64,000 nucleotides of DNA from Anolis carolinensis. Its lineage: Eukaryota. Position numbers and translations under genes: made by a program. The notes beneath the pieces were generated by a model. It was not told the DNA's origin and searched no databases. It saw nothing but the letters and a program-made list of their open reading frames with translations. Positions within the stretch are counted from its first letter, which is position 1. Each line of letters starts with the position of its first letter. The stretch covers positions 314,783,402 to 314,847,401 of the forward strand of contig NC_085841.1 of the NCBI RefSeq assembly GCF_035594765.1, in the 5' to 3' direction. Shown piece by piece: positions 38,117 through 64,000 of the stretch.

Positions 38117-39337
38117 TGTGATCGAGGTGACCACCCTCCCCCCCAGGACTTTGTAAAAGATAGTTCAAAAACCAAGACTTTATGTTCTATATTCCATATA
38201 TTTATAGTAGAAGGTGATTGAGACTTTTTTACTGGAGTTTACTGTGGATTATCCCTGCACTCTGAGGCAAGAGATAACAACTTCATGAATTGTAAGATCA
38301 TGCTGCTAAAACTCCACTTTTATGAATTTCCATATTGGGTTCCCCAGATGTTGTGAACTTCGTTCTTATCAAATGTTTTCAATTGTTTATATCATTCATG
38401 ATTCCCCTTTATGCAATGTAACCCACCTTTATGGATTCTCCCTTATTTCCTCGAAATCTATCTATCTGCCTATATGTGTTTGTACTCTTTAGGATCCCCG
38501 GAAAATATGTATTTTTCCCAGCAGGGTTTATATTCCAACTTTATTTTATTTTTCATTTTATTTCATATAATTGTCAAATCATGAAATCAAATGGGAAATA
38601 TTTTGACCCCAACATGAACCTCAGCTCCTATGACCCAGGCTTCCCCTTCCCAAAAACAAAAAGTGATTCGCCCCCAAGGCAAACATTGTCATATCTCACC
38701 CAAAGGAAAAACCAGGACATCTCAGGAAGGCACCCTGCTGGGCCCATTTCCACCCATCCTTACTTCCACCTCTGACACCCCAAGGCATATCTGAAATCAG
38801 TGTACATGACAGGAACCCCTGATGGCTGTCATTAATCCCTTTAGAAATCGGCCGGACAGGAATTAATCTGATCTTTCCTGCCCTGTCACTTCATTGTTCC
38901 AATAACTCCCGCCTTCCCCTTCCTGATTGGCCCGGGTGGGGACAAAAAGCAGCTCCCTATTGGGCCAGCAGAGCAAGGCGGGAAACGAAAGCCCGCCTCG
39001 TTCAACCCTCTAGCCTATCCGCGATCAGATGGGCGGGGGAGCGGGGCGGGAAATTCAAGGGGCTGTCAGACTGAAACACTGTATAAATATGGCTTTATTT
39101 TTGATATATGGTACGCTAGTAGACTGAATGATCGGTACTAGTGTCCTTTTCAGCTGAATCGCTCAATAAAGACTCCTTGGCGGATTTTCCTTCATCTTTG
39201 GCGGACCTTCTTCATTTCGGCTCCAGGTTGTATTGCGGCTCATATTCTCTTATCGGCTCCGCCAAGGTCCGTTCTCTCAGGACCGGATCGGCTCTCTCCT
39301 TAAGGGGCCCGATCCCCTAGAAACGCGGTCGATAACA
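38117..39337 (+). repeat. ERV 5' LTR
   Basis: tgtgatcgag...gtcgataaca; three substitutions relative to the 3' LTR found by eye. Confidence 0.95.
38920..39170 (+). promoter_or_regulatory. ERV LTR promoter and poly(A) signals
   Basis: ATTGG (CCAAT) at 38926, GC boxes at ~39031-39050, TATAAA at 39082-39087, AATAAA at 39165-39170 (3' LTR equivalents offset +5533). Confidence 0.75.
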
Positions 39338-43649: not shown

Positions 43650-44870
43650 TGTGATCGAGGTGACCACCCTCCCCCCCAGGACTTTGTAAAAGATAGTTCA
43701 AAAACCAAGACTTTATGTTCTATATTCCATATATTTATAGTAGAAGGTGATTGAGACTTTTTTACTGGAGTTTACTGTGGATTATCCCTGCACTCTGAGG
43801 CAAGAGATAACAACTTCATGAATTGTAAGATCATGCTGCTAAAACTCCACTTTTATGAATTTCCATATTGGGTTCCCCAGATGTTGTGAACTTCGTTCTT
43901 ATCAAATGTTTTCAATTGTTTATATCATTCATGATTCCCCTTTATGCAATGTAACCCACCTTTATGGATTCTCCCTTATTTCCTCGAAATCTATCTATCT
44001 GCCTATATGTGTTTGTACTCTTTAGGATCCCCGGAAAATATGTATTTTTCCCAGCAGGGTTTATATTCCAACTTTATTTTATTTTTCATTTTATTTCATA
44101 TAATTGTCAAATCATGAAATCAAATGGGAAATATTTTGACCCCAACATGAACCTCAGCTCCTATGACCCAGGCTTCCCCTTCCCAAAAACAAAAGGTGAT
44201 TCACCCCCAAGGCAAACATTGTCATATCTCACCCAAAGGAAAAACCAGGACATCTCAGGAAGGCACCCTGCTGGGCCCATTTCCACCCATCCTTACTTCC
44301 ACCTCTGACACCCCAAGGCATATCTGAAATCAGTGTACATGACAGGAACCCCTGATGGCTGTCATTAATCCCTTTAGAAATCGGCCGGACAGGAATTAAT
44401 CTGATCTTTCCTGCCCTGTCACTTCATTGTTCCAATAACTCCCGCCTTCCCCTTCCTGATTGGCCCGGGTGGGGACAAAAAGCAGCTCCCTATTGGGCCA
44501 GCAGAGCAAGGCGGGAAACGAAAGCCCGCCTCGTTCAACCCTCTAGCCTATCCGCGATCAGATGGGCGGGGGAGCGGGGCGGGAAATTCAAGGGGCTGTC
44601 AGACTGAAACACTGTATAAATATGGCTTTATTTTTGATATATGGTACGCTAGTAGACTGAATGATCGGTACTAGTGTCCTTTTCAGCTGAATCGCTCAAT
44701 AAAGACTCCTTGGTGGATTTTCCTTCATCTTTGGCGGACCTTCTTCATTTCGGCTCCAGGTTGTATTGCGGCTCATATTCTCTTATCGGCTCCGCCAAGG
44801 TCCGTTCTCTCAGGACCGGATCGGCTCTCTCCTTAAGGGGCCCGATCCCCTAGAAACGCGGTCGATAACA
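43650..44870 (+). repeat. ERV 3' LTR
   Basis: Direct repeat of 38117-39337. Confidence 0.95.
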
Positions 44871-53737: not shown

Positions 53738-56013
53738 TGAGTGTGGAACCAGACTTCTATTCATTCACCCAATGTGACCTGTCTTTGAAAGAACATGCAG
53801 AATGTGGGATAGCACTTTGGAACATGGGTGTGTGAGCACTGAAGAATGTAATGCTGTGTCCGACATTTGGAAAAGTTTTTCCCAGGCTCTGGTTATATAT
53901 GCTGTCATCTGTTCTTCAGGATTTGTAAAACTGGAAAATTGAAAGGAGAAAACATAATAATTTGCACATTCACTTGGATTCACAATGTAAAACTATTTAA
54001 GCTGGGAATCTGTCCCCCGACTTTTGTAATGAGGGTTTTAGTGAGTCTGAGGTGCGGGTGTGGGAGCAGAAGAGAGGGTTAGGAAGGTTACATCAACAAT
54101 TCATCTTGAGCCTTTTGTTAATGTTCATTTTTAATGACTCCTCTGTGGCAGAGAGTTTTTCAAAGAAACACAAACAAAACACAGTTCTGTGGCTCTTCTT
54201 CTAGACCCAGTATAAACGCATCAGGCATTATTTTTATTATCTGAGCCTTAGTGAGTAATGTTCAGTTTATTAAACAGTGACTCAATGTTGAGATTTTTTT
54301 CTCTCTTTCTTTTTCAGATAGAAGCTTATTTCCCCCCTTCAGTAGTAGGATTAAGCTGACCTGTTTCATCATAATTTACCTAACAGCTGCCCTCACATTG
54401 CAACAACTAGCTTCATTTTCATCCCACTAAAACCTCTCTCTTTTATCATATTGTAAATTATTTACAGAAGTGCTGAATCATGAAGGCTTTGAGACTGGAG
54501 ACAAGGTATTTATAGTTTTAAAGAGGTTGTTCCCACATAATAGTAAGATCCCCCATCCCATACTATTGACATCTAGGGTTTGCCAGAGGAGCAGTTCAAG
54601 CAAGGGTCATATTGAAACCAAGGACATTAGCTTGGTGAGTGTTTTTCTGTCCTGACCCATTCAGTTTAGCTTATGCTCGATGGGCACAGATTCTTTTATC
54701 CATGGTCCTAGCTTATCAACTTCAATGGGATTTGCATTTCAACTCTTTTGAAGAGCACTGTGTGAGGAGAACTGCTTAGGGCAAAGGTCTAACATTTAAA
54801 CCTAAATAAAATAAAGAGATCTGGTGTTATAAGGCTACACCACAAGGACCTATATACCATCCAAACCTGTTTGTATGCCTGGATGCATTCTGATGGTATG
54901 GAAAGTTTGCGAATCTTGAGAATTGTCTGCATGGGATGCTACTTCATCACAATCAAAGTACTGTAGTTCCACAGAATTAGCCATTTTTAATTCCATCATA
55001 AGTGTGCTTGGGAAGTGGATGTCCATGGTGAAGCAAGCTTGTTATTTCTATAATTGGCATTATTCTCAATTGGTTTGTCATTCAGTGTAGGAATTGAGGA
55101 TCGTCTTCTCAGGAATTCATTTCAGGGTTGGAGGCTTCGTTAGTATCAAGGACTGGATTCTAGATGATGTGGTGGGTCTTTTGAGAACTATTTGGAAAAA
55201 TTGTGATATTTTCATTCCTAATAGATGTTACATTAATAAAACAGGTGTGTAATAATTAGTCCTTGGAACTATAGTGATTTTCCTAGGACTGCAGTTAGAG
55301 AGTCTGTGCCTGGTGAGCAGATAGGCTAGGACAGAGAAACCAACTCACCAGGTTGAAGACAAGCCACAGAGGTTTATTACGATTCGGCCAAAAGGTATGC
55401 AAGTAAAAGCAATTTGCTTCCAAAGGTGCAAGGATAAAGATAGAGAGAAATGCAAGACATCTTATACAGTTCATATACAGTTCTGAAACCATTCAGAATT
55501 CCTGCTCCCTCCCCTGATTGGTTGGCAAAGAGGCTGGTCAGGAATCTTCACCCAATCTTCACCGGGATTGGCTGAGAGTTCAGTTGATGTCACTGGGGAT
55601 TTCCTTGGCAGGGAGAATGGCAGACGGGGATTGGTCAGAGCGGATGATCAATCAGTTGTAGAGACACCCCCTGAAAGGGTGCAATCCAGGGAAAACAATG
55701 GTTATTGAATGCACATAAGCAGCAGATTCTCAGTTTCATGTGAATTGTATAAACATTTTGGGCTTATCTGGCTGGCAAAGGAAATCATATGTCTACGCAT
55801 TCAAACAAGGAATCTGATAATTACCTGGCTTGGAAATAGCCAGAGGGATTTACCCAACCTTTTCTATTCCCAGGAGATTATCTGAACAGGGTTACAGAGG
55901 GGTGGCTGTCTCTAGGCTACATTTTGATAGAGTTTATATACCTTTCATATAATAAAAAGATAACAGTACACAGTTTGAAAGATAGATAAAGGTAAAGGTT
56001 TCCCCTGACGTTA

Positions 56014-57082
56014 TGTTATGGTTGAGCCTCATGGCTCTGCTACTGGGAGACGTGGGCGTAAGACTCCTCGAGAGTCAGATACTCTTGAGGAGCGAGAAAG
56101 GAAGCGGCTGCGAGATATCTTTGCAGAACCATCTGATGAGGATTCTTTTGAAGGGTTTACTGAGGGAATGGAGGAAGAGATGGTTAGCTCGGAAGAGGAT
56201 GACATGGAATGGACTCGTGTAAGGGAGGATTTGGGTGCCACTGGCAATGATAGTATGGAAGGCGATTGGGGACCTTCAGGATTAGACCCGTGGACAAGCT
56301 GGAGGGATGGGACGGGATCCACAGCTGGGGATGCTGTGGGGCGTAGTCAAAGGTGTTCCAGTTCTGATGAGGAAAGTGATGAGGAAACGCCCGGGCTAAG
56401 GAGGACAGCTGATAGCGATGAGGACTTGTAACTGGCATAAAATGGGGTTTGGGAGCAATAGCAAATTGCGTTGGGCAAGGTAATCTGGACGAACGCTTGG
56501 GATCTGTGTGGGAAGTTTTCCTGAAGACAGGTGTGATTCGTTTGCTGACTACCTTTGACCTTCCGTCGTCTTCTTGACGGACGCCATCTGCTTGTTCTGG
56601 ACTTACGGACTGACTGACTACGGCCTCGGATTCTCCTACCTGTGTCTATCGTTGGAACTGGTGAACTACAAACGTCTGCATCTACCTTACGACCTTTGGA
56701 ACGGATTGGGACTTCGCTGACTGCTTCTGCCCTCGTCTGCTGTGTTTGTATCGGGAATTTGCCTGCTGTGTGGAGGAGTAACCTCTAAGTTACTCAAACA
56801 TAGCTCTTGGCAGCAGAGAAGCATCTGCTGCCAATTAGTTGCATTCCTTTGAACTCTTTGTTCACCAGCTTCTGTTTTGTTTATTCCCAGGCTGAAGCAA
56901 GCTGTTTTGATTTAACCCAGATTAAACTCCGGTTTAATCCGGTTTATCTTTTGAACGTTTTTCTTGTCTCTTTTACTTTTAAGGCCAGTGTTTGCCTAGC
57001 CCTTGTCTTTTACGGGCATTTTTGGTTCTGTAACTCCAATAAACTCTGTTATCTTTTATCTTGTGGCGTTCTGTCTTTGACA
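56014..57082 (+). mobile_element. Gypsy solo LTR (1069 bp)
   Basis: tgttatg...ttgaca with perfect 5-bp TSD cgtta; homologous to the 3' LTR at 62140-63290; TATA-like cataaaa at ~56437; AATAAA at 57038-57043. Confidence 0.95.
56018..56431 (+). CDS. LTR(U3)-encoded acidic integrase-tail ORF (137 aa) with FxGF motif; probably not expressed from the solo LTR
   Basis: 117/137 identical with no indels to the last 137 aa of the integrase ORF 62873-64000; contains DIFAEPSDEDSFEGF (56114-56158). Confidence 0.7.
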   Translation: MVEPHGSATGRRGRKTPRESDTLEERERKRLRDIFAEPSDEDSFEGFTEGMEEEMVSSEEDDMEWTRVREDLGATGNDSMEGDWGPSGLDPWTSWRDGTGSTAGDAVGRSQRCSSSDEESDEETPGLRRTADSDEDL

Positions 57083-57458
57083 CGTTAAGTCCAGTCGTGT
57101 CTGACTCTGGAGGGGTTGGTGCTCATCTCCATTTCTAAGCCGAAGAGCCGGCATTGTCCGTAGACACCTCCAAAGTCATGTGGCTGGCATGACTGCATGG
57201 AGCTCTGTTACCTTTCCGCCAGAGACCTATTGATCTATTCACATTTGCATGTTTTCGAACTGCTTGGTTGGCAGAAGCTGGAGCTAACAGCAGGCACTCA
57301 CCCCGTTCCCCGGATTTGAACCTGCAACTTTTCGGTCTGCAAGTTCATCAGCTCAGTGCTTTAACACACTGCACCACACTGATACAGTTTATTAAAAGTT
57401 TAGGCACAATATTCATGAGGGTATGGCTGCTGCTGGGTTTATTCCCAATCTCCTAAGG

Positions 57459-62139: not shown

Positions 62140-63290
62140 TGTCAAGGACAGAACGCCACAAGATTCAGAGTAACAGAGTTTATTAGGTTACAGAACTCAA
62201 AACAAGCCCGTAAAACACAAAGGCCAGGCAGTATTTGCCTTTAGGAGCAAAAAAGGGGCAAAATAAATGTTCAAAAGATAAACCGAATTAAACTGGAGTT
62301 TAATCCGGATAAAAAACAAACTGCTTGCTTCAGCCTGAATATAAACAAAACTAGAGACAAGAACAAAAGATACAAAGAATGCAGCTAATTGGCAGCAGAT
62401 TCCTCTCTGCTGCCAACACAGTGTTTAGAGTAACTTGCGTCGCTCCCACACACACACAGCAGACAGGATTTCCAGCACGAACAGATCAGCCAGGGAATGC
62501 AGCAGAAGAGTAGACCAGTTCCGTTCCGTAGTTCAAAGCCAGAAGCAGACGTTTGTAGTTTTCCCAAGTCCAAGAAGGGGATGAAGCCAAGCCGTGGTCA
62601 GTTCAGTCCGGGTATTCAAAGCAGGAGATGGCGTCCGTCAAGAAGACGACGGAAGGTCAAGCTAATAAGAGTAAGCACAGGTTTGCACAAACAAATGCCC
62701 ACACAATCCCTCCCGCCGTCTGACCCTGGATTCCAATCAACTTACGTCTCAGCACAGGAAAGCACACAAGTCTTCAGGGAAGCGTCCCACACACACACGG
62801 ATCCCAAGCGTTTGCCCAGATTACCTTGCCCGACGCAATTTGCAATTGCTCCCAAGCCCCATTTTATGCCAGTTACAAATCTTCATCACTGTCAGCTGTC
62901 CTCCTTAACCCGGGCGTTTCCTCATCACTTTCCTCGTCAGAGCTGGAACACCTCTGACTACGCCCAGCAGCATCTCCAGCTGTGGATCCCGTCCCATCCC
63001 TCCAGCTAAGCCATGGATCTGATCCTGAAGGTCCCCATTCATCTTCTGCCCCATCATGGCCAGTGGCCCCCAATTCCTCCCTTACCCGAGTCCAATCCAT
63101 CTCATCCTCCTCCGAGCTAACCTGCCCCTCCTCCATTCTCTCCGTAAACCCCTCGAAAGACTCTTCATCAGATGGTGCTGCAAATATGTCTCGCAGTCTT
63201 TTTCTCTCTCGCTCCTCGAGAGTATCCGACTCTCGAGGAGTCTTACGCCCACGCCTGTCAGTAACAGAGCCACGAGGCTCAATCATAACA
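62140..63290 (-). repeat. Gypsy 3' LTR (1151 bp)
   Basis: Same termini as the solo LTR 56014-57082; AATAAA at 62184-62179. Confidence 0.93.
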
Positions 63291-64000
63291 CTATCCCCTC
63301 TCACAAAGGCCTCCTCCTCCGATGGTGGAGAAGTGGCAGTGATACTCTCTGCTATAGCACCACGACGACTAGAGGTATCAAGTTTCAACAGCGAACGATG
63401 AAAGACTGGATGGACCTTTAAACTAGATGGTAAACGCAAACGAAACGCAACGGAAGAAATCTTTTTAACGATAGGAAAGGGACCCAAAAACCGAGGCGCA
63501 AACTTTCCCCCAGCCTGCTTAATATATTTGGAAGATAACCACACCAAATCCCCTTCCTCCAACTCCTCCCCTGCCTGCCTGCGGCGGTCAGCCTGAGTCT
63601 TCTGCGTTGCCTTAGCTTCCAACAGTAAGCGACGGGCAACATCGTGCAATGCAGCCATTTCCGTAGAGCGGTACACAGGGTCCGAAGAGACCACATTGGT
63701 CGACGGCGCCACACCTCCCCGTGGGTGAAAGCCATAAGTAAGCTCAAACGGCGTATGCTGACTAGACGTGTGCACCGCATTGTTGTAAGCAAATTCCGCC
63801 ACCGGTAACCACTTCACCCAAGCCGTGGGTTGATCTAAACAAAAACAACGCAAATACTGCTCTAAGAGCCCATTAACCCGTTCCGACTGTCCATCCGTTT
63901 GCGGATGGAAGGCGGACGACACGTTTAACTTAGTCCCCAAACACTCATGGAAGTGTTTCCAAAAGCGTGACACAAATTGCGGAGCCCTATCGGAAATAAT
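62873..64000 (-). CDS. pol: Gypsy pol integrase (5'-partial): catalytic core, GPY/F domain and LTR-encoded acidic tail
   Basis: Open from the window edge: IISDRAPQF ... HPQTDGQSER (D-35-E spacing counted), AEFAYNN, TPFELTYG, KFAPRFLGPF..VHPVFHRSLLK; no stop until 62873, which lies inside the LTR. Confidence 0.95.
   Translation of the reverse strand: MISDRAPQFVSRFWKHFHECLGTKLNVSSAFHPQTDGQSERVNGLLEQYLRCFCLDQPTAWVKWLPVAEFAYNNAVHTSSQHTPFELTYGFHPRGGVAPSTNVVSSDPVYRSTEMAALHDVARRLLLEAKATQKTQADRRRQAGEELEEGDLVWLSSKYIKQAGGKFAPRFLGPFPIVKKISSVAFRLRLPSSLKVHPVFHRSLLKLDTSSRRGAIAESITATSPPSEEEAFVRGDSVMIEPRGSVTDRRGRKTPRESDTLEERERKRLRDIFAAPSDEESFEGFTERMEEGQVSSEEDEMDWTRVREELGATGHDGAEDEWGPSGSDPWLSWRDGTGSTAGDAAGRSQRCSSSDEESDEETPGLRRTADSDEDL

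Follow-up and report, generated by a model that had tools for sequence, protein, structure and literature searches.

A chromodomain-less lizard chromovirus with an LTR-encoded integrase tail and a candidate LEDGF/HRP2-binding motif

The locus and its features

The window, the whole stretch of 64,000 nucleotides of Anolis carolinensis DNA that was analysed, contains the 3′ part of a retrotransposon on the minus strand and a related solo LTR on the plus strand. The features discussed below are the following.

62873..64000, minus strand: pol, 3′ portion, comprising the end of the integrase core, the SH3/GPY-F module, the linker and the tail encoded in the LTR; frame open as far as the window edge
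63383..63553, minus strand: Tf2-1-like SH3 domain (PF24626), E 6.8e-17
63291..63302, minus strand: polypurine-tract-like run, read in frame, from the sequence
62140..63290, minus strand: 3′ LTR, TG...CA, 1151 bp; similarity to the solo LTR starts and stops at both bases
62873..63289, minus strand: LTR-encoded acidic integrase tail, 138 aa and stop, net charge -20, dN/dS 0.16
63146..63220, minus strand: TIM-like motif, with a predicted helix to Phe36, an 8-residue acidic linker and FxGF at tail 45-48 (6EMO alignment, AlphaFold)
63077..63094, minus strand: conserved Trp block 1, tail 66-71; 5 of 6 residues common to the distant protein P0005
62996..63013, minus strand: conserved Trp block 2, tail 93-98, from conservation
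62862..62868, minus strand: TATA-like CATAAAA, putative promoter element, at an identical offset in both LTRs
62662..62745, minus strand: likely GT-AG intron (GTAAGT...AG) of 84 nt in the non-coding LTR, from a joint in public-run contigs
62179..62184, minus strand: AATAAA hexamer resembling a poly(A) signal, about 40 nt short of the end of the LTR, in both LTRs
56014..57082, plus strand: solo LTR of a sister subfamily, with a 5-bp TSD (CGTTA) and an intact 138-codon tail ORF, from sequence comparison

The hallmarks of Ty3/Gypsy elements are present, namely a TG...CA LTR, a PPT and a short TSD, the last on the solo LTR only. The order RT-RNaseH-integrase is seen in the pol of a full-length relative, P0001, which is 95% identical over the integrase region of the window.

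The 84-nt joint that marks the likely intron occurs in contigs of two of the three runs guessed to be RNA (two studies) and is absent from those of the DNA run. In the solo LTR about 83 nt are missing from the 62662-62745 area, and it possibly represents an intron-less LTR subfamily; when it was considered as a spliced form, removal of the segment at its GT-AG ends gave a score of 106, which ties for second place among 80 offsets (best score 108). Elsewhere in the window, two identical 300-bp direct repeats (38117-38416 and 43650-43949), spaced by 5.5 kb, enclose a C-rich interior in which no long ORF could be recognised, and the pair probably belongs to a young mobile element.

Read-through of pol into the 3′ LTR

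The pol frame is open on the minus strand from the window edge (64000) down to a TAA at 62875-62873, and the ORF listing gives 375 codons and a stop for the part inside the window. The first-pass annotation of this DNA held that the integrase frame passes through the PPT into the LTR and ends at 62873; this is confirmed, with 138 sense codons and the stop lying inside the LTR. It had placed the TG start of the LTR at 63290, and this base indeed directly follows the purine tract and is the point at which similarity to the solo LTR begins. An open frame as long as the tail ORF arises in 0.045% of 20,000 base shuffles.

The stop was also described as lying just before the CATAAAA sequence in both LTR copies. 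The spacing stands: CATAAAA begins at LTR +423 in both copies, 4 nt past the tail stop. The second copy, however, is not the element's own LTR. The reading of 56014-57082 as the 5′ LTR was rejected, as this copy lies on the opposite strand, has its own 5-bp TSD and carries no internal sequence; the 5′ LTR of the studied element falls outside the window. The tail ORF of the solo LTR (56015-56431, plus strand) is intact over its 138 codons and 86% identical to that of the 3′ LTR. The solo LTR interrupts a SINE-like sequence at about 55989-57380, a putative Sauria SINE. If CATAAAA is a TATA box, U3 would measure about 450 bp, of which about 417 would be coding, while R would be long and U5 very short. 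The tail ORF also has an in-frame ATG at LTR +5 in both LTRs; since every LTR carries it, the earlier proposal that the tail can be translated solely from the 3′ LTR depends on the TSS.

The read-through is a trait of the family rather than a stop lost in one copy. The family falls into two protein clusters, one with 46 members and one with 75 (121 in all), and 30 of these proteins were among those listed. Four of the 30 stop or drop out of frame within or ahead of the SH3 domain; among the 26 that continue past it, 25 cross the PPT junction, 21 have the whole tail and five leave the frame early. These counts lean toward intact copies, because the sample consists of gene models clustered on tail-bearing representatives. 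The tails are 70-96% identical to that of the window and the integrase cores 91-97%, and the relatives of the window protein that are named come from Anolis carolinensis. In one gene model, P0013, the motif stands at both ends and the protein apparently starts in the ORF copy of the 5′ LTR, which is probably an annotation artefact.

A phmmer search against 1.84 billion representatives returned three proteins only, two of them named Anolis. The Pfam search gave no match in the tail, the ESM Atlas had no usable match for it, and no relative was found in viral contigs; metagenome contigs contained distant relatives only, at 35-42% identity.

Selection on the tail

Comparison of the 3′ LTR with the solo LTR reveals a dS of 0.50 and a dN of 0.08 over the tail ORF, a ratio of 0.16 (Fisher p 8e-11), and 38 of the 58 ORF differences fall on third codon positions. 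Read in either of the remaining forward frames, the region contains stops, and the ratios are 2.0 and 1.5. Within the ORF the two LTRs are 86% identical with 0 gap columns; outside it they are 77% identical with 112 gap columns. Contigs of four public runs agree with this picture: all 12 common indels listed, of 17, fall outside the tail ORF in the non-coding LTR, and the common substitutions in the LTR ORF among those listed comprise six synonymous and three non-synonymous changes of nine, with no stops. The tail ORF is kept by purifying selection at the protein level. We infer that the copies of the ORF found in solo and 5′ LTRs arise as a side effect of reverse transcription, which duplicates the LTR.

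Descent and loss of the chromodomain

Neither the window protein, searched to E ≤ 1, nor P0001, searched to E ≤ 0.1, has a match to the chromodomain (PF00385), and no such domain follows the SH3 domain at 63383..63553. The domain is present in about 100 of the 118 other integrase relatives among those listed. In an IQ-TREE tree of 36 rows picked from 147 alignable ones, the family lies inside a lizard clade of 14 rows (100/100), 12 of which are named Anolis, Podarcis or Gekko, and its sister (98/97) consists of the chromodomain-bearing P0048 and the truncated P0049. As the family nests among chromodomain-bearing elements and its sister P0048 has the domain, the family is a chromovirus by descent that has lost its chromodomain.

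Eight other members of the clade extend 82-209 residues past a Gly-rich signature that resembles the PPT/LTR junction of the family. These long tails, observed in proteins only, suggest that read-through into the LTR is probably clade-wide. Among 80 loci of distant metagenomic chromoviruses, an LTR pair was found at 28, which probably represent few families; at 27 of these, pol first stops 0.8-1.1 kb short of the LTR. In the metagenomic loci L005-L080 the spacing between that stop and the 3′ LTR is about 0.9 kb.

The long tails of three chromodomain-bearing sisters, P0048 (Podarcis), P0067 and P0071 (Anolis), end in an RRSAR[LI] motif. We presume that this motif resembles the nucleosome acidic-patch binding core of HMGN, and it may be another type of tether that occupies this slot.

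A TIM-like motif in the tail

According to the excerpted text of PMC9987994, a TIM consists of a helix, an acidic linker of 8-16 residues that CK2 frequently phosphorylates, and in some cases FxGF; every known partner of LEDGF/HRP2 requires this last part, to which the text ascribes specificity for LEDGF/HRP2 recognition. The tail contains, with a predicted helix, the same elements in the same order, and its 8-residue acidic linker includes one CK2-type serine (S-x-x-E). Among 177,635 PDB sequences, the fusion of the LEDGF IBD with JPO2 M1 (6EMO) was one of four matches at E ≤ 10. Its alignment with tail residues 30-49 has an E value of 1.6, which is not significant, yet 11 of the 20 residues are alike and both anchor positions are in register. 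A profile of seven motif sequences searched against the PDB retrieved no LEDGF complex. The AlphaFold model is of low confidence overall (mean pLDDT 44.5, with the SH3 domain left unfolded); it places a helix at tail 24-36 that ends at the anchor Phe, and this block, with pLDDT 64-74, is the model's most confident tail segment. The tail motif appears to have a TIM-type layout and is likely to be LEDGF-binding.

Within the family, 17 of 27 positions are invariant in the motif block, against 7 of 10 and 17 of 23 in the two Trp blocks. As conservation in the motif block does not exceed that in the Trp blocks, selection may act on other parts of the tail. Both Trp blocks recur in a distant tail relative, P0005 (Anolis XP_016852620.1), which is 46% identical over 103 residues and carries three TIM-like copies, one of them degenerate. 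This protein was not traced to an element.

Distribution of the motif across lineages

The pattern [FL]-x8/9-[FL]-x-G-F, written after the motifs had been seen, matches 9 of the 14 lizard-clade tails and none of 170 other tails, and it arises in 0.005% of shuffles of the window tail. A bare FxGF is present in three of the 170 unrelated tails and in 0.6% of the shuffles. The carriers of the full pattern are the family and one clade from wall lizards (Podarcis) made up of two groups. A topology that unites the family and the Podarcis carriers in a single clade is rejected (AU p 0.008), and the motif was therefore either gained twice or gained once and lost several times. The tree makes the two Podarcis groups sisters, and an earlier tally of three independent lineages with the motif was abandoned for that reason.

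In Podarcis, the TIM-like motifs (P0072, P0170, P0186, P0187, P0194 and P0197) are situated downstream of the chromodomain and upstream of the putative PPT. P0072 and P0170 retain both motif and chromodomain (43 and 32 bits), so that replacement of the chromodomain is not obligatory. In the group of P0186 the chromodomain has decayed (14.5 bits or no match) and the linker is Ser/Thr-rich rather than acidic.

A proposed role for the tail

We propose, with a probability of about one half, that the LTR-encoded acidic tail is a replacement chromatin tether that acts through a TND of the LEDGF/HRP2 type by means of its helix-acidic linker-FxGF motif. The tail would remain on integrase as a disordered C-terminal extension, and the FxGF motif would dock on the integrase-binding domain (TND) of LEDGF or HRP2, a contact that CK2 phosphorylation might strengthen. 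The PWWP domains of LEDGF/HRP2, readers of H3K36me2/3, would then steer insertion to gene bodies, with the tail standing in for the lost chromodomain. A wider picture can be drawn more tentatively: lizard chromoviruses may have gained a host-type LEDGF/HRP2 motif apparently twice, which in the present family is written in the LTR, would have replaced the heterochromatin-reading chromodomain and would lead to HIV-like gene-body targeting, and the tail may be a clade-wide slot for swappable tethers.

The tail could instead be a functional integrase extension with a partner other than LEDGF/HRP2, namely another TND protein (IWS1, TFIIS, ELOA or MED26) or partners of the Trp blocks, or one that acts in nuclear import by means of its basic clusters. 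The conservation of the Trp blocks, which equals that of the motif and is common to P0005, is consistent with such a partner, as are the different short motifs in the tails of sister families and the statement, in the excerpted text of PMC9987994, that a helix and acidic linker alone can bind other TNDs. The same text assigns FxGF specifically to LEDGF/HRP2 recognition, however, and the FxGF recurs in a separate lineage; we regard a different partner as less likely than LEDGF/HRP2.

A more improbable reading is that of a separate small protein, released by cleavage of Pol or started at the LTR ATG at +5, that acts on transcription of the element and not on integration. The in-frame ATG in both LTRs and the intact ORF of the solo LTR would fit such a protein, and transcription regulators are the typical carriers of TIMs in the excerpted part of PMC9987994; a shift in contig depth near 63107 in two runs guessed to be RNA gives a weak hint of another transcript end. 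Against this, integrase and tail share one unbroken frame in 25 of the 26 listed proteins, and the ATG belongs to the LTR terminus, so that a promoter upstream of +5 would be required. That the frame is open merely through DNA-level promoter constraint or recent common descent, with a tolerated disordered tail and a chance FxGF, is very improbable and for the ORF largely refuted: the tail region is purine-rich and a bare FxGF does occur in shuffles and unrelated tails at the rates given above, but the third-position bias and the dN/dS of 0.16 are specific to this frame and the full pattern is far rarer in shuffles.

Relation to known systems

The first-pass annotation regarded Gypsy pol as normally ending before or near the PPT, which is overstated. 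In plant CRM group A chromoviruses, the CR targeting motif is encoded in the 3′ LTR (excerpts of PMC3059260), and in several Beta ‘Bingo’ families pol also reads into the 3′ LTR (excerpts of PMC3605345); the overlap architecture is therefore already known. The read-through of the lizard elements may itself already be in repeat annotations. As far as the excerpted sources describe them, CRM group A elements resemble the lizard family in that a chromovirus pol enters the 3′ LTR and a putative targeting module there, its role inferred, replaces the chromodomain. They differ in being plant elements whose CR motif is credited with centromere targeting, whereas the lizard tail is acidic and TIM-like. 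The family nests in the lizard clade and not in the plant CRM clade, in a tree that was built without a CRM reference, and an independent origin of the LTR-encoded module is most likely.

Vertebrate and fungal chromoviruses with an SH3 domain and a chromodomain share with the family the RT-RNaseH-integrase order, a Tf2-like SH3 domain, about 48-57% pol identity and a 5-bp TSD. We take these elements to be the sushi-like V clade. The lizard family differs from them in the lack of the chromodomain and in the 138 codons within the LTR.

The TIMs of JPO2/CDCA7L, MLL1 and IWS1 combine, as predicted for the lizard tail, a helix with an anchor Phe, an 8-residue acidic linker that contains Ser, and FxGF (excerpts of PMC9987994; 6EMO). 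The lizard motif, a candidate binder, differs in being LTR-encoded and in its location in a retrotransposon integrase.

HIV uses host LEDGF for finding active genes, and lentiviruses bind LEDGF via folded integrase domains. As proposed here, the lizard tail would reach active chromatin by the host adaptor that lentiviral integrases use, yet its contact would be a short linear motif of the host type within a disordered region. In the open-access literature, no report of a TIM/FxGF motif in a retrotransposon integrase was found, nor one of the lizard clade. The pol/LTR overlap is thus not new; the TIM-like tether would be.

Implications

Every solo LTR of the family spreads an intact motif-bearing ORF. 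If the motif does not bind, the family is a modest, well-supported vertebrate case of a known architecture. If it binds LEDGF/HRP2, a retrotransposon would have converged on the host tether of lentiviruses by imitating a short motif of the host itself, and the family would be a vertebrate parallel to the plant CRM elements. One genome would then offer chromodomain-bearing and chromodomain-less sister families, the insertion sites of which are directly comparable.
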